Part shown: piece after piece, positions 21,672-28,098 of the stretch
How positions within the stretch are numbered: position 1 is the stretch's first letter
Layout: the number at the start of each line of letters is the position of its first letter
Virus record (IMG/VR): IMGVR_UViG_3300011271_000002
Location: 1-64,000 of that record
Strand: one strand, 5' to 3'
Source of the DNA: a virus
DNA length: 64,000 nucleotides
Translations under genes and position numbers: made by a program
The notes under the pieces: generated by a model
What the model was told of the DNA's origin: nothing
What the model saw: the letters and a program-made list of their open reading frames with translations, nothing else
Databases searched by the model: none

Positions 21672-22367
21672 ATGCCTTATGATCTGGATTACTACAAACG
21701 ATGGCGAAAGGTTAATCGCCCACGCAAGCACAAGTGGTGTTCGAGTTGTTCCGTTGAACTGGCCGGGAAGGGCGGCTCCAAGCGATGTCTTGAATGCCGA
21801 ACGAAGAGGGCGGTTGAAACACTGGAGGCTAGATTTTTCAGATACGTCGAAAAAACTGAGACTTGCTGGCTTTGGAAACTCGGTCTTGATGGGGGCGGGT
21901 ATGGAAGAATGCGCGTGGACGGAGTATTGCATTACGCGCATCACGTATCGTATTTCATTACTAATGGATGTTGGCCACCGAAGGGCAAACATCTGCACCA
22001 TAAAGTTAAAGAGGGGTGCGTCGGGCCGCGCTGCGTTAATCACGATCATCTCACACTACTCTACCCAAAGGAACACGTTCACGCAGATGGGACGTGTCCA
22101 GCGGCTCTCAATGCCATTAAGACTCACTGTAAGCATGGGCATCCGCTTTCTGGAGACAATATACGCAAGGTCAAGGCGGGAAGAAGTTGCTGGGTTTGCG
22201 TTAGGGCCTATCGGCTCAAGCGTCGTAAAGTAAAACAGGCATACAACAAAATATACTACGAGAGAAACAAGGAATCCATATTGGAGCGCAATCGAATGCT
22301 GTACGCAAAAAAAATGGAGAATTACAAACCAGCAATCACTCTTATTGCACCATCGAAGCCGCTCTAG
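21672..22367 (+). CDS. free-standing HNH endonuclease
   Basis: CWLW..GYG...AHHVSY..HLHH..C.NHDHL, KTHCKHGH zinc motif. Confidence 0.85.
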   Translation: MPYDLDYYKRWRKVNRPRKHKWCSSCSVELAGKGGSKRCLECRTKRAVETLEARFFRYVEKTETCWLWKLGLDGGGYGRMRVDGVLHYAHHVSYFITNGCWPPKGKHLHHKVKEGCVGPRCVNHDHLTLLYPKEHVHADGTCPAALNAIKTHCKHGHPLSGDNIRKVKAGRSCWVCVRAYRLKRRKVKQAYNKIYYERNKESILERNRMLYAKKMENYKPAITLIAPSKPL

Positions 22368-23985
22368 CGCGGAGTTGCAAGCGCTCCCGCTCAACATCGA
22401 TCTCCGCGACATTGGACGGCGCCGCCCTCAGCAATTCCGGCACATTCCGGTAGACCTGCAGCACATGGGACCGCCGCGCCAAATCCAATAGTGTCGCGCT
22501 GCGGGCAGAGTCTTCCTCGCCCGGCGTGGTGATCTCGGTGGCGAATCCCTTATCCATGCAGTCCTGTGCGCTCATCCAAGTTTCGCCGTCGAGCATGGCC
22601 TGGATTTCCTCGGCCGAATTGCCAGTGCGCGCCACGTAGGTCTGGGCGATTGACTGCGATATCTTCTCCAGGACATCGGCGACCTTCCGTAGATCCGAGG
22701 CATAACCCCAAGCCATTGTTGAGGCATTGTGGATCATCAGCATGGCATTGGGCGCCATGCTGATCACGTCGCCGCACATGGCCACGACGGAAGCTGCGGA
22801 GGCGGCCAGGCCGTCAATGCAAGTCTCCACCGGTTTGCCAAGCGACCGGACGAAGTTACCGATACAGACTCCCTCGAAGGCATCACCGCCGAAGGAATTT
22901 ATTCTGAGTTTCAACTTCGAATAGGTGCCAGCCTGATCCACCTGGGCCTTGATCCATTTCGCCGTGATGCCATCGCCATACCAGGATTCGCCGATGTCGC
23001 CGTAGAGAAGCAATTCCAGCGTGTCAGCGTCTTTTTCACTGGCTGCCCGGAACGCGGGCACCACTCCCGAATTGGCGAGCATTGCGCGATCGGCTTGAAT
23101 CGCTTCATGCAAATTCCCGGTCCTGCTTTTCACGATCCGAAGACCGGCTATCGCGCGATTGCGGCGGGCGACGTTATGCGCCTTATCGTCCCAATTGGCA
23201 TCGCAATTAACATCCTCGCACTCGGTGTTGGTGCAGTTGTCGCAGTTGCCTGCGACGCAAGATTCGCAGGTGCATTCGCAGAGCTCGTTACGCTTTTCTA
23301 CTGGCCGGGCAAGCGCGGCAGCCGCGCACGTTTCGAGGTGGCTCGAGATTTCCTCCGGAATACCGTCCGGGAACAATGTACGCAGTGAAACAGCGGCCGA
23401 TGTTTGACTGTAGGTGGGATAGGTCACGATGCTGACGTCGCCAATGTCCAAGTCGAGGAGCTCGCGAAGCTCCATTGCCTTGTTTTGCGGATCCTGGCTC
23501 CAGCGCTGCCCGTCCTTGCCGTGAACCGTAAAGGCGAAGCTGCAGCCGCTGATGTCGCCGCGTTCCAACGATTGCTCGAGATCGCGTTCGTAAGTTCGGC
23601 TGCCCATCAACGTTTTGAAACCGAGACCGATTTCGTCCTCAAATAATTCGGTCGTGCCCTGGGTGCCCGTTCGGCCTAAAAGAAGGCTGGGGTCATGGTT
23701 TATCAGGTGCCGCACATCCTGCCGTTCGGAGATCGCTCGGCTGAACGCGCCCGGCCGGATGATCTCCTGGAAGCGGCCATGTTTGTCGGCGAGAATCTCG
23801 CTTCTGGAATTGAACGGCGCGGCGTGACCGGTAAAATACTTCTTGCCGTCCTCGCCGGACTCGATGCGGAACTCCATAGCCTGGAAGCTACGCACTTCCT
23901 TTGGGATCACGGTGATCTCGGAAATGCGAAGCGGCGGTTTCAGCGGCGTGGGCCGCGAAGCAGGATCAGCGAGTTTCAGTGCCAT
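22342..23985 (-). CDS. HK97-type prohead protease fused to ClpP-like protease
   Basis: GHAAPFN, LINHD..LLGRT, GCSFAF, VSIVTYP; then RINSFGG, IDGLAASAAS, LMIHNA, ETWMSA. Confidence 0.9.
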   Translation of the reverse strand: MALKLADPASRPTPLKPPLRISEITVIPKEVRSFQAMEFRIESGEDGKKYFTGHAAPFNSRSEILADKHGRFQEIIRPGAFSRAISERQDVRHLINHDPSLLLGRTGTQGTTELFEDEIGLGFKTLMGSRTYERDLEQSLERGDISGCSFAFTVHGKDGQRWSQDPQNKAMELRELLDLDIGDVSIVTYPTYSQTSAAVSLRTLFPDGIPEEISSHLETCAAAALARPVEKRNELCECTCESCVAGNCDNCTNTECEDVNCDANWDDKAHNVARRNRAIAGLRIVKSRTGNLHEAIQADRAMLANSGVVPAFRAASEKDADTLELLLYGDIGESWYGDGITAKWIKAQVDQAGTYSKLKLRINSFGGDAFEGVCIGNFVRSLGKPVETCIDGLAASAASVVAMCGDVISMAPNAMLMIHNASTMAWGYASDLRKVADVLEKISQSIAQTYVARTGNSAEEIQAMLDGETWMSAQDCMDKGFATEITTPGEEDSARSATLLDLARRSHVLQVYRNVPELLRAAPSNVAEIDVERERLQLRARAASMVQ

Positions 23986-24012: not shown

Positions 24013-24483
24013 TTAGAGCTTCTCCGCGATGTAATCCTTTTCGGTCAGCGTCGCTATCAGCCGAAGTTGTTTCTCGAACCATTGCTGATGATCGCGATGC
24101 CATTTGATGAGATGCTCCCACAAATTACGAGATAGATCGTCCTTGGCGGCGCTGGCGGTGACTACGTTAGTTTCGTAGAGATCGCAGATCTGAACCACCA
24201 TGGCTAGCGAATCGGTGATGATCGCGGTCACTGAGCCCGGTTGGCCTACGGGAGCCGGCTGGTAGGGCGAGCCGGTTCCGTCGCCGCTCAAAAATAAGAG
24301 TTGATTGGTGACGGCCTTCAGCCACGAGTGTGCATCGTCGGCGAAACCCGTGAATTTGTTGCCCAGTTTTTTGAGTCCGTCAAAACGCAATAGCCTGGCG
24401 TTCATTCGGTATTGCAAATTCAAATGCGCTTCGAGCGGCAGCGCGTCCTGGAAATTCTTGATAACGGTTGGATTACCCCTCAT
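24013..24483 (-). CDS. bacterioferritin/ferritin-like four-helix-bundle protein
   Basis: MRGNPTVI..LE...QY..AR...GLKKL...H....LLFL and D.LSR.L.E...H..W.E.QL.LI match the Bfr pattern. Confidence 0.75.
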   Translation of the reverse strand: MRGNPTVIKNFQDALPLEAHLNLQYRMNARLLRFDGLKKLGNKFTGFADDAHSWLKAVTNQLLFLSGDGTGSPYQPAPVGQPGSVTAIITDSLAMVVQICDLYETNVVTASAAKDDLSRNLWEHLIKWHRDHQQWFEKQLRLIATLTEKDYIAEKL

Positions 24484-26552
24484 CGGTTGCTCCTTCAATC
24501 ATCTCATCGAACATCTTAGCCTTGTGCGTTGCCGCCTCGCGGAACACGGCAATCCGGATTGCCTGAATTGCCCGGCCCAATTCCCGATCCACGATTTCGT
24601 CTAACTCACTAGCATCCCACTTTCCGGAGCGCTTTGTCATGCCGCCGATGTATTCGCCGATGAAGCGGTCGACAACGGCGCCGTAATCGCCCGTCACGTC
24701 AAATTCCCGAATAGCCTGCATATCGGCGACGCTACGGATCGCTTCCAGAATAGGCCCTAAACATCGTGTCAATGCGCCGGCATCTTTGCGCCTGCTCGCT
24801 AGAAAGCGCTGGCAACCGTCGCGAAATAGACCGGAATAGAGAGTTTTGATGGCATCCGGCGCCGGGGTTGTTTTCTTCTTGGATCCGCCAGCGCCACCCT
24901 CCGGAACGGTCCCGTGCCCGGCGCCGTCCTGGAACGTAGGATCGATCGGTGTCGACGTGAGCGTCATGTTTACCGGCATCCAATATTCTTCTGCGGTTGG
25001 ATCGTCGATCGGATTCAATTTCTCCATGCCGTGAATGTCGTTCGAATTCAAATAGCCCCATTGCTTGCCGCTGGCATACAGCTTCTCCCGCGAGGCCGCG
25101 TCAGGCCGCAACATTTCGGAAAGGTCGAAGTCAAGATAGAAGGGACTCCGCGGCGTCCGGCCGAGCCCGCGGTGAGGGAAAAGTTTCCGTTTGGCTTCGT
25201 TGACGATAGCGGAAAGCCACGGCCCGAAACAGAATTCCTTCAACTCCTGGGCGAGCTGCTCGGTCATCGCGCGACCTTTGTCAGTTTCCCCGACCATGTG
25301 CGGCGGCACATGGAAGAGTGCGCAGATTTCATTGCGACTGAACTTGCGGGTCTCGATGGTCTGCGCCTCCTGTGGGTTGTTTGACATCGGCGTGAATTTG
25401 AACCCCGGTGGCATCACCGCGACTCGATGAGCGTTTTCGCCGCCTTGCGCTTCCATCCAGGATCGCTTCGATTGTTCCTTGTCGGCGGCCAACATGTTCA
25501 TGGGCATTTCGAGGATGCCGCCCGGCTTGGCAAAGTTGGCGAAATACTTGGCGCCGAATTTTTCAGTCGCCAGCGCCAGCCCGATTGTTTGCCGCGCCAG
25601 CCAAACCACGCTCTGCCCGATGCGGCCATCAAAACTGAGGCCAGGCACGTGCAGCATGTCCTCCATGGCAATGAATCTGACTGAATGGGATTTCGCATCC
25701 AGTTCCGATTGGTCCATGTTGTCGATGCCATCGGTGGTCTGATAAACCATCGTGCCCGCCGGCAGGTTCAGTGGGAACGGGCGCCATGGTACCGCCTCGA
25801 GCCTCACTGCGGTCGTTAGCCGTCTCGGTCGGGTCTTGCCGGGATTGCGCGGCCACAACGCCACGATGCCGTTGCCCTCGTCCCGCTGCAGCTCGATGTA
25901 GCCATTGCTCCATGCGAGACAATGACACATGAACGCCTTCCACATCGTGTTGCCCGACATCTCATCGTTTGGCTCGAGCGCCACCAGGTCATAGTAGTCA
26001 TGCTCGTAAGCGATTCGATGCCGCTCGCGGCCGGCGTCGGATTGTGAACGCTCGAACACGTGGCGCGGCAGCGAGGAGATCTTGCCGGCGATGATGTCCA
26101 CACAGGCGAGGAAGGTCGTGGTTTGAAACGCAACGAGTTCGGATACACGCGTCCCGCTATCTGTGCGTCCACCCTGAAAGCAAATTGTTGCGCGCCGCCC
26201 GCATCCGGCGACGCTCTGCATATTCCTATGCAGATCAGACTATATCTTCAATCTTTCGATTGCCGCGCGCTTCGGGGCCGCTGGCCCCTACTCCCTTTCG
26301 GGATAGTCGTTACACCTTCCTCATCACTGAGGCTCGGCTCGGGATTGTCCGTTCTGGAGTTTCCCCGAGTTCACGCGGTTACGACACATTCAAAGTTTAT
26401 GTCGAGTAGCCACTCAGCCGGAATATGAAGTATCGAGTGGCCGCTGCTGTCCCTTCCGGCCTTCAGGACAGGGGCGTCTGTGGATTTTCCAAACTGCTTC
26501 GATCTTCTCTAATCGGAGCAGTCCAGTCGCGCCCAATTACTGCTAGGCTCAT
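24473..26552 (-). CDS. HK97-family portal protein, three exons: 26552-26465, 26423-26399, 26180-24473 (606 aa if spliced)
   Basis: GGGAGG RBS and ATG at 26552; joined sequence RSSLENPQTPLSFPAEWLLDIFQGGRTDSGTRVSE; body has ACVDIIA..ISSLP, PND.MS, GNGY-like, MLHV.GL.FDG..G.S, FAN.AKPGGIL, EICALFHVPP. Confidence 0.9.
26181..26398 (-). ncRNA. ORF-less group I self-splicing intron (IA2-like), 218 nt
   Basis: P1 CGACAU/GUGUCG with U-G at the splice site; P3 CCGCGU/GCGCGG; P4 CUCGGG/CCCGAG; P7 GACUAU/AUAGUC with S element AAGAUAUAGUC; P7.1, P7.2, P8 and P9 hairpins; terminal omega-G; removal restores the frame. Confidence 0.93.
26424..26464 (-). other. 41-nt coreless insert (putative satellite mini-intron) in portal gene
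   Basis: creates in-frame TGA and a frameshift; contains GCCGGAAGGGACAG, complementary to the ligated junction CUGUCCU|UUCCGGC. Confidence 0.8.
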
Positions 26553-27730
26553 CACGTCCTCCCTTCTGCCGCTTCGTTAACGACATCTTGCCGAGTAGCG
26601 GATTTGCCCGGATCGACTACCGGTAATTTACCGCGCTTTGCCTGCGCATAATGTTTGCCACAAACACCCTTGGCTATCGCCGGCGATTCGCACATCGAAC
26701 AATTCTGACGAGTGACGATCTGCGCAAAATTTGGATCGCCGTATTTTTCCCAGCGCTGATAATGTTTATCGCAGAATCCCCGCGCTTTGTGCCTGGCTCC
26801 GCAAATTGTGCAGAAGTTTTTGGGCTTGGAGTTGGCCGCGCGCCGAGCCAATTCACTACGTCCTTCCGGACCGAGAGCTTCCAATCTACGGCGAGCGCCT
26901 TCGATCATTTTCTGTTTTTGTACTTCGCCCAATGGCTTGCCGAAATGGGGATTGTTAGCGCCTGACATTGCAGCACGGACAGCGGCGCGTTTTAATTCCG
27001 CATCGGGCCCACCCCAACGCGCGCGACTGGCGGCCGCGTGTATAGCCATAAGTTGTTCGCGAGGAGCCGACTCGCGCCATTCTCGCGAGGCCTTTTGCAG
27101 TTTATCCTGATGTCCGACTGGCATCGGCACTCCGTACATGTGATTACCAGTTCCAGACATGCGTGCACTTTGATTTGACCGTTCTTCCGGCGTACGTTTC
27201 CGAATTTTAGCGGATGCACTCATCTTCTGTTTTGTGGGCTCAGAGAACACGCGCCCGCGCAGCGTGTCACCTTTCTTGCGTCGCGCCTCCGGACTGTTCA
27301 AATGGGCCGTGCCTATACGTTTACGAGCCTCGCTTAGCTTTCTGCGATGTTCGATGGTTTTGGGACGACACAATTTCTCGTATGCCTCGCCGACCATCGT
27401 GCCGCCCGTGCCGCCAGTTGTGAGATTATAGCCGATGCCTGAAACGTTGGAACGATAATCAAGTATCCATTGTTTCTCAAGGCTAGACAGTTCTTCCTTG
27501 CTAAAGGCTTGACACAATTCTTGAACTTCGAACGATGCTGCTCCATACTTTCTAAATGCTCGATAGAGTAATGGTTTTTTGTTCGAGCCAGTCGCGGCCG
27601 TTAGCAGATTGGTTTTTATGTATTGGGGCAATGGCTTGACGGTCTGGCCGACATATATCTTCCCGTTCACGACGTTGCGAATCAGATACACGACGCCATA
27701 GGGCGCTTTGCTACTCTGTTGTTCAGCCAT
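26552..27730 (-). CDS. free-standing GIY-YIG homing endonuclease with NUMOD3 repeats and C-terminal zinc fingers
   Basis: GVVYLIRN.VNGKIYVGQT, LYRAFRKYG...F, LEKQWI, GYNLT.GG; EHRRKLSEA and NPHFGK repeats; C..C......G.C.KHY twice. Confidence 0.9.
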   Translation of the reverse strand: MAEQQSSKAPYGVVYLIRNVVNGKIYVGQTVKPLPQYIKTNLLTAATGSNKKPLLYRAFRKYGAASFEVQELCQAFSKEELSSLEKQWILDYRSNVSGIGYNLTTGGTGGTMVGEAYEKLCRPKTIEHRRKLSEARKRIGTAHLNSPEARRKKGDTLRGRVFSEPTKQKMSASAKIRKRTPEERSNQSARMSGTGNHMYGVPMPVGHQDKLQKASREWRESAPREQLMAIHAAASRARWGGPDAELKRAAVRAAMSGANNPHFGKPLGEVQKQKMIEGARRRLEALGPEGRSELARRAANSKPKNFCTICGARHKARGFCDKHYQRWEKYGDPNFAQIVTRQNCSMCESPAIAKGVCGKHYAQAKRGKLPVVDPGKSATRQDVVNEAAEGRT

Positions 27731-27804
27731 GGTGACCCCTCCCAGGATCGTTATGCTGAGAATCAGTGGCAGCGTCGCAAGCGCTGCCCTGGTTCGAAAA
27801 ACTT

Positions 27805-28098
27805 TCATTTCGGGGACTTTCGAATAAACGGGTATGTGGGATTCGGAAGCAATTCACGCCCACCATCCGTCCGTAGCAACACCAAGAAACTAACGTCATC
27901 TCCTTCGTTGGCTCGGATGACCTGCTTGGCGTTGATGGCTCCAAGCGTGGTCGGATATTTGTGCTCCGGGGCCATAGTGGCTATGCTTTCGAGGTTCAGA
28001 TTGCAGAAGTCCTCTCCGGTCATCACCTGCGTGACCTTAAACGGAATCAGAACTGTGTCGCCAGCAGCTAGCGGCCGGCCTTTAGCGTCGTGCGGCAT
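27805..28098 (-). CDS. hypothetical protein (KOW/SH3-like)
   Basis: MPHDAKGRPL..GD.V; AAAGGAG RBS. Confidence 0.65.
   Translation of the reverse strand: MPHDAKGRPLAAGDTVLIPFKVTQVMTGEDFCNLNLESIATMAPEHKYPTTLGAINAKQVIRANEGDDVSFLVLLRTDGGRELLPNPTYPFIRKSPK

Follow-up and report, generated by a model that had tools for sequence, protein, structure and literature searches.

The sequence analysed here, which we call the window, comprises positions 1 to 64,000 (64,000 nucleotides, nt) of the IMG/VR virus record IMGVR_UViG_3300011271_000002, and it contains a gene encoding an HK97-type portal protein that is split into five parts: exon 1, a 41-nt insert, a micro-exon, a group I intron and exon 3. Judging from its sequence and from those of its relatives, the 41-nt insert is probably a non-autonomous, helper-dependent mini-intron of the group I type which has no catalytic core of its own. 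The virus record is a complete soil phage genome of 104,422 base pairs (bp) with direct terminal repeats, and the parts of the portal gene are arranged on its minus strand as follows.

26465-26552, minus strand: portal exon 1, 29 codons plus 1 nt (translation; the N-terminus matches homologues)
26424-26464, minus strand: 41-nt coreless candidate mini-intron, consisting of leader, P10 guide, P1 guide, linker, third-helix strand and a tail ending in A
26399-26423, minus strand: micro-exon 2, 25 nt, encoding (F)PAEWLLD(I) (translation and homologues)
26181-26398, minus strand: group I intron of 218 nt without an open reading frame (ORF) (Rfam RF00028, 63.8 bits)
24473-26180, minus strand: portal exon 3 (Pfam PF04860, E=1.4e-76; homologues)

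The insert in the portal gene

The 41-nt insert is real and not a product of chance. Exon 1 starts with an ATG at 26552, preceded by a GGGAGG Shine-Dalgarno sequence, and reads MSLAV...ENPQTPLS before a UGA stop codon (26465-26463), which is the first in-frame codon at the insert. The continuation, PAEWLLD, picks up at 26421 in the -1 frame, past the insert, whose length is not a multiple of three. All these positions (the ATG, the TGA stop, the 41-nt insert, the frame of PAEWLLD and an intron 25 nt downstream) had been given in an initial annotation of this DNA and they hold, as does its claim that exon 3 would be out of frame if it followed directly on exon 1. Uninterrupted counterparts are provided by more than 100 portal homologues (51-69% identical), which read RSSLENPQTPLS[Y/F/M]PAEWLLDIF[N/Q]GGRTDSG, in agreement with the LS(F/Y)PAEWL that had been predicted for such alleles. 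Taking out 26464-26424 exactly gives PLS-F-PAEWLLD, with S-F-P at the junction and a spacing equal to that of the homologues. The homologues P0002, P0013 and P0118 are N-terminally truncated. There is a single copy of the insert sequence in the 104,422-bp genome, and several soil runs gave identical assemblies of this genome at a depth of 14-26x. An assembly artefact had been named as a possible refutation; separate contigs from four soil sequencing runs of three studies, some of them possibly source data, carry the insert with 0 differences.

Pairing of the insert with the exons

Three segments of the insert are complementary to the flanking exons.

26454-26461, minus strand: P10 guide part, pairing with the first 8 nt of exon 2 (26423-26416)
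26447-26453, minus strand: P1 guide part, pairing with the last 7 nt of exon 1 (26471-26465)
26434-26442, minus strand: third-helix strand, forming 9 bp with exon 2 (26416-26408) in the minimum-free-energy fold

Taken as a whole, the guide (26461-26447) forms an unbroken run of 15 pairs with the ligated junction, seven in exon 1, ending in a U.G pair, and eight in exon 2, and such a match was equalled in one of 20,000 composition-preserving shuffles of the insert. The wobble at the splice site is formed by G26453 opposite U26465, and P10 (8 bp) is contiguous with P1. The initial annotation had recognized the U-G pair at the junction and the 7 bp with exon 1; it had counted 14 paired positions instead of 15, as exon 2 contributes eight. 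The pairing that it proposed between the GAAG and CUUC ends of the insert is possible as well. The minimum-free-energy fold forms the hairpin of exon 1 with the guide, and the P1 hairpin loop measures 11 nt both in the mini-intron and in the resident intron. The third helix, equalled in 69 of 5000 shuffles, ends in a U.G pair at a UGGCU site that is the position of an intron in relatives.

The 5' splice site of the resident intron, between 26399 and 26398, and its omega-G at 26181 were placed from its P1 and its terminal G, P1 comprising six exon bases with the U.G pair at 26399. From end to end, the micro-exon lies in three helices: the mini-intron's P10, the third helix and the resident intron's P1. 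The core of the resident intron, placed by Rfam at 26417-26216, resembles those of known phage introns and is the single group I core in the whole genome. The 41 nt of the insert are fully used by guide, third-helix strand and tail, with neither a P3-P9 core nor a P7 guanosine-binding site, and because of this the insert cannot itself be a ribozyme. Compared with a group I intron, it has a P1 with its U.G pair and a P10, and it has neither an omega-G nor a core.

A family of inserts in portal genes

Metagenome contigs were scanned with a pattern that contained no intron term, namely ENPQTP, a gap of 30-60 nt and PAEW, and this gave eight loci with five distinct sequences. Two more, L050 and afterwards L071, came from scans of viral contigs, so that, with the window counted, there are eight distinct portal inserts, 37-69 nt in length. 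Their insertion sites, five in all, fall within about 15 coding nt: one follows ENP, one follows QTP, a third lies a base beyond the latter, and the last two are found one and two bases past the S codon. At whichever of these five sites it stands, each insert carries a guide complementary to its own junction; individual guides were equalled by chance in 0 to 263 of 20,000 shuffles, and that of the window is the longest and most perfect in the family. The lengths of the inserts are not multiples of three, except in L071 (69 nt), which has in-frame stops.

A junction-anchored alignment took in seven members of the family. Position -1 is a U.G pair in all seven, positions -2 to -7 are paired in six or seven of them with one to four pair types, and positions +1 to +6 are likewise paired in six or seven, with three or four pair types at +2 to +6. 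No pairing extends past -7 or +6 in these seven inserts. The U.G pair at the splice site indicates that the guide is not a copied inverted repeat, which would put A opposite U. Homologous inserts with covariation between guide and exons had been predicted from the window, and they are found across all five insertion sites. In addition, the predicted spliced messenger RNAs (mRNAs) of seven distinct members all encode PLS[F/Y]PAEWLLDIF[N/Q]GGR; 16 of the 17 codons vary and two alone alter the amino acid, and therefore the micro-exons are translated.

A full group I intron lies 16-34 nt downstream of each of the eight distinct portal inserts, as had been expected from the initial annotation, and across the whole insert family, in portal and other genes, this distance is 16-56 nt. 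Two unrelated kinds of core are involved. The type-A core is present in the window, L038, L039 and L050 (Rfam, 61-76 bits). The type-B core, found in L035, L041, L042 and L071, has its helices in the order P3-P4-P6-P7-P3'-P8-P7', with compensatory changes in P8 and P9. The type-B intron is missed by Rfam (RF00028) even with the threshold relaxed to E<=1, blastn against the phage collection gave no match, and it is called a group I intron on its topology alone. When the Rfam group I model is aligned to L038 and L050, its P1 falls on the P1 hairpin of the mini-intron and the remainder is treated as an insertion. Immediately 5' of the 3' splice site, mini-intron and neighbouring intron have the same base in seven of eight comparisons. 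No insert without an intron was observed among the eight distinct portal inserts, a small sample. L096 is a portal allele with a type-B intron in which the upstream motif is uninterrupted, and therefore the core occurs without the insert; the reverse was never seen. This asymmetry fits the idea of a satellite.

Other searches were less productive. Two gap patterns of the type ENP...GGRTD gave 0 matches in viral contigs, with a sensitivity on known loci of only about 20%, and viral contigs likewise yielded 0 matches to a pattern, of low sensitivity, for type-A introns lacking an insert. The matches of a relaxed ENP...PAEW pattern (L051-L059) were discarded as chance matches in unrelated genes. 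Scans of reference genomes gave nothing or chance matches (L061-L068), with no prophage example, and the phage collection held no cultured phage with this portal clade.

Several portal loci show further interruptions. L035 has, at the UGGCU site 16 nt past its first mini-intron, a second insert of only 20 nt (L035:2119-2138), with a G as its last base; this insert was also found in L036, L037, L040, L044, L045, L048 and L049. This second insert has no guide of its own, and its P1 strand, with a U.G wobble, is the third-helix strand of the first mini-intron. The portal start of the L035 type consists of four exons, of 16 and 12 nt plus the flanks. The portal start of L041 (L041:2427-3030) contains, within about 90 coding nt, three interruptions: first a mini-intron of 37 nt, then two full introns, one of type B (2526-2727) and one of type A (2751-2987; 91.7 bits in Rfam), with an exon of 23 nt between the latter two. 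The type-B introns, of about 205 nt (L042:5781-5991, L035:2151-2356, L041:2526-2727), are abundant in soil phage contigs, where they are found in many genes, with two or three copies in some contigs.

Candidate mini-introns in other genes

An 18-nt motif of the type-B core was found in 92 stretches of viral contigs (L069-L154), in many different genes. The sequences upstream of 66 type-B introns were screened for a U.G pair, a terminal G, a junction-spanning guide and the restoration of a long reading frame. This screen recovered the known cases and new mini-introns, at least three of them in two other phage genes; three were verified by comparison with uninterrupted alleles in the same data set.

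L107, 3533-3571: mini-intron of 39 nt, restoring ELDA-FAKEIPDL
L135, 129-162, minus strand: mini-intron of 34 nt, restoring AKEIP-DLVFHGTTAYS
L108, 76-114, minus strand: mini-intron of 39 nt, restoring FLGKNP-ESGEKNYR

Like the portal inserts, these three mini-introns have a guide that matches their own junction and a U.G pair at the splice site, and they end in G. A guide span of at least 12 bp was found with 12% of the real introns versus 1.9% of random positions. A mirror screen downstream of the introns gave such a match in one of 36 cases, and this was terminator-like, which suggests that the inserts sit upstream of the core. The candidate at L104 was rejected, its upstream ORF being the end of an HNH gene, and the automatic screen matches at L096 and L071 were dropped in favour of the homology-based reading. 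Further candidates, unverified, are L072:3213-3259, L078:7094-7138, L092 and the weaker L144; the genes concerned in L072 and L144 have weak PHROG matches to the major head protein. Taking portal and other genes together, we lean towards the view that soil phages harbour widespread coreless satellite introns of the group I type, of 20-69 nt, with a P1/P10 guide and a terminal G, which would be spliced by their neighbours.

Proposed splicing and alternative explanations

From the sequences we infer excision of the 41-nt insert, the catalyst responsible and the order of the steps. The mini-intron would keep only what a group I intron needs in cis, that is, the P1/P10 guide and a short 3' tail, and the complete ribozyme 25 nt downstream would dock the P1 hairpin of the mini-intron in place of its own. 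A guanosine would then attack after U26465, and the freed end of exon 1, held beside exon 2 by the long P10, would attack after A26424, joining the exons as S-F-P. Finally, the ribozyme would remove itself by means of its own P1, so that one core would perform two splicings with the 25-nt micro-exon retained. The initial annotation had further proposed, as speculation, a P9.0 mimic in which the terminal UCA of the insert would pair. The most likely ancestor of the mini-intron would be a full intron whose core was lost after another core had come to lie beside it. Such an excision is feasible, judging by engineered group I ribozymes that excise coreless introns in vitro and in Escherichia coli (PMC4094466, PMC2532722). 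The genome that would depend on it looks viable, since it is complete, has one group I core and is unchanged in several soil runs.

Several points weigh against this explanation. The window copy ends in A26424, while all its relatives and the neighbouring intron end in G; the initial annotation was right in recording an A in place of the omega-G, yet the terminal G of every relative means that this A weakens rather than defines the class of mini-introns. The P7 of the neighbouring intron looks standard, and therefore the second step should be slow, unless the 8-bp P10 compensates. Shifting the boundaries of the 41 nt so as to reach a terminal G was tried and rejected, as it broke the frame, introduced a stop or deleted conserved residues. 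As the sole member of the family ending in A, the window copy is therefore atypical, and it may splice slowly, rely on its unusually long P10 or be partly defective. Moreover, a core that docked the P1 of the mini-intron but kept to the 3' splice site of its own intron would leave exon 2 out of the message and destroy the reading frame. The co-occurrence with introns could partly reflect genetic linkage through homing co-conversion and not catalytic dependence, and the screen of other genes has a measurable false-positive rate.

Four other explanations were considered for the window copy. The insert might be removed by guided cleavage and ligation and not by the neighbouring ribozyme, serving as a splint within a duplex of 15-24 bp for a host or phage endonuclease and an RNA ligase, or for some unknown ribozyme. 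Two segments of the insert do pair with 24 of the first 25 bases of the ligated-exon junction, like a nicked-duplex substrate, and the terminal A of the window copy fits group I chemistry poorly. However, the invariant U.G pair and the terminal G of the relatives are characteristic of group I introns and are not known to play a part in splicing by proteins, and the strict proximity to a group I core, with the insert upstream, would be left unexplained. Neither an Rnl2-type ligase nor RtcB was found in the phage genome, and in the search for the T4 Rnl1 family the control matched nowhere. We regard this explanation as unlikely. That the window copy is dead or crippled, either a relic or a scar of endonuclease repair, with the portal protein rare, truncated or supplied by a helper phage, seems to us quite unlikely. 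It would agree with the terminal A, found in no other member, and with the location of the insert 25 nt upstream of the intron site, which we take to be the cutting distance of I-TevI-type enzymes. Nevertheless, exon 1 keeps its start codon, its Shine-Dalgarno sequence and a conserved frame of 29 codons, no other member has so long or so perfect a guide, and the complete genome with terminal repeats is identical across several soil runs. Nor is the Shine-Dalgarno-like stretch of the insert followed by any canonical start in the frame of exon 2. The conservation of the start, the reading frames and the guide speaks for a functional mini-intron; as history, an origin as a repair scar at an endonuclease cleavage site is plausible.

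Two explanations would leave the insert in the mRNA. Programmed ribosomal bypassing of the T4 gene 60 type, with take-off at UCC, landing at CCG and the insert guarding against the adjacent endonuclease, would suit a short untranslated gap in an essential gene beside a free-standing endonuclease gene, with a stop directly after the last codon of exon 1 and a hairpin beginning at the take-off codon, and there is a precedent in the gene 60 hop within a mobile endonuclease cassette (bioRxiv 10.1101/2022.08.31.505936). Nonetheless, at the position where landing would restore the length, no member of the family offers a codon identical to, or synonymous with, that of take-off (in L038 and L050 identical codons lie in the middle of the insert), and the sole downstream UCC in the window (26422-26420) leads to GGC UGA. 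The first in-frame stop stands directly after UCC in the window and in L038 and is 2 to 12 codons into the insert elsewhere; early in-frame stops are also usual in phage introns. As bypassing would, in addition, leave without explanation the U.G pair, the terminal G, the two-sided covariation of the guide and the need for a nearby ribozyme, we consider it very improbable. Read-through after a -1 shift or a short tRNA hop near CCC CUG UCC UGA would add about 13 residues, with a peptide covering LKAGRDSSGHSILHI. The exon 2 frame of the window is indeed open through the insert and back to 26511, and the CUG at 26471 is repeated in the -1 frame at 26466. Against this, a slippery heptamer is absent, an almost invariant motif would have to accommodate the added residues, and the exon 2 frame meets stops inside the insert in L038, L039 and L041, so the family as a whole cannot use this route, to which we give hardly any probability. 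Finally, two known classes of intron were rejected for the insert. In an archaeal bulge-helix-bulge intron both splice sites would be expected in 3-nt bulges with a 4-bp helix between them, and the fold has no bulges, the splice sites abutting on one continuous guide helix. A group II or group III intron, for which a 5' GUGYG, domains V and VI and a branch adenosine would be expected, was discarded since the insert starts with GAAGG and has no room for a domain V, and no Rfam group II match was found in the window.

Endonuclease gene and neighbouring genes

Directly upstream of the portal gene lies an endonuclease gene whose stop codon overlaps the portal ATG (TGATG).

26552-27808, minus strand: free-standing GIY-YIG/NUMOD3 homing endonuclease gene (Pfam PF01541 and PF07460)

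A gene of the same kind is found directly upstream of the portal in L037, L038 and L042, and a remnant of it in L050. In L096, the ORF upstream of the insert-free portal (L096:7300-7700) is a decayed GIY-YIG/NUMOD3-like sequence of which only VFIYLIT...SGSKNPFFGRKHK is left. The site of the mini-intron is separated from that of the intron by 23-28 nt in most portal members, which we take to be about the distance at which I-TevI-type GIY-YIG enzymes cut upstream of an intron site. It may be that the mini-intron marks the site cut by the adjacent endonuclease, or masks it, and the GIY-YIG gene, the mini-intron and the intron would form one mobile cassette at the 5' ends of portal genes.

The database portal protein of this phage, P0001 (582 amino acids; 24473-26221, minus strand), starts at a false ATG within the group I intron and misses exons 1 and 2. 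A ferritin-like ORF (PF00210; 24013-24498, minus strand) overlaps the 3' end of the portal gene, and the next gene, at 22342-23985 (minus strand), encodes a prohead S78 protease fused to a ClpP-like domain in one protein of 547 amino acids.

Comparison with known systems

Group I introns are textbook examples of autonomous ribozymes. The inserts share with canonical group I introns (RF00028) a P1 guide with a U.G pair, a P10, an early in-frame stop and, in the relatives, a terminal G; unlike them, the 41-nt insert has no core or guanosine-binding site and its window copy ends in A. Degenerate derivatives of group II introns, such as the group III introns of Euglena and, by hypothesis, those of the spliceosome, keep their splice-site elements and take catalysis from elsewhere, although their chemistry and lineage are different from those of the mini-introns. 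We know of no helper-dependent degenerate case for group I introns.

Tandem full group I introns are known in phage Twort orf142, around an exon of 23 nt, and in the 23S rRNA of Coxiella, around one of 34 nt; elements of one intron can interact with the core of the other, leading to exon skipping or to a 'single large ribozyme' (PMC10136302). As in Twort, the portal inserts place two intervening sequences in a phage gene around a short exon (16-34 nt here), whereas in Twort and Coxiella both introns have their own cores, and here the upstream partner has 20-69 nt and the short exon must stay. Trans excision-splicing ribozymes and spliceozymes resemble the proposed system in that a group I core removes a coreless segment and joins its flanks, and in them the bases beside the 3' splice site matter (P9.0) (PMC2532722, PMC4094466). 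These are man-made and have the guide on the ribozyme, whereas here the system is natural, with the guide on the excised segment and the core on the same transcript. The Twort and Coxiella tandem introns are thus the nearest natural relatives, and the engineered excision ribozymes the nearest functional analogues. The 50-nt gap of T4 gene 60 with MobA (bioRxiv 10.1101/2022.08.31.505936) is similar as regards an essential gene, a neighbouring endonuclease gene, and a stop and hairpin at the start of the gap; it has matched GGA take-off and landing codons, which are absent here, where a group I splice-site signature is found instead. The psbA intron of cyanophages with F-CphI is likewise an ORF-less group I intron in a conserved phage gene adjoining a free-standing endonuclease, for which collaborative homing by the adjacent endonuclease has been described (PMC6083498), but it has no second, coreless insert.

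The literature searched contained no natural coreless group I intron, only engineered analogues, in line with the view of the initial annotation that there was no described equivalent. The family of mini-introns is previously undescribed. If the proposed splicing is true, gene callers systematically mis-annotate phage genes of this kind. It would then be a natural case of one catalytic RNA serving several substrate introns within a transcript, with a single ribozyme choosing between competing P1 helices and keeping an exon of 25 nt, and it would represent nature's own version of the engineered excision ribozymes, with compact and reusable guide rules. It would also be a living intermediate toward introns that depend on shared catalytic machinery, and, if the mini-introns are spliced by their neighbours, helper-dependent degeneration of introns would have taken place in the group I lineage as well, beyond the route of group II introns and the spliceosome.

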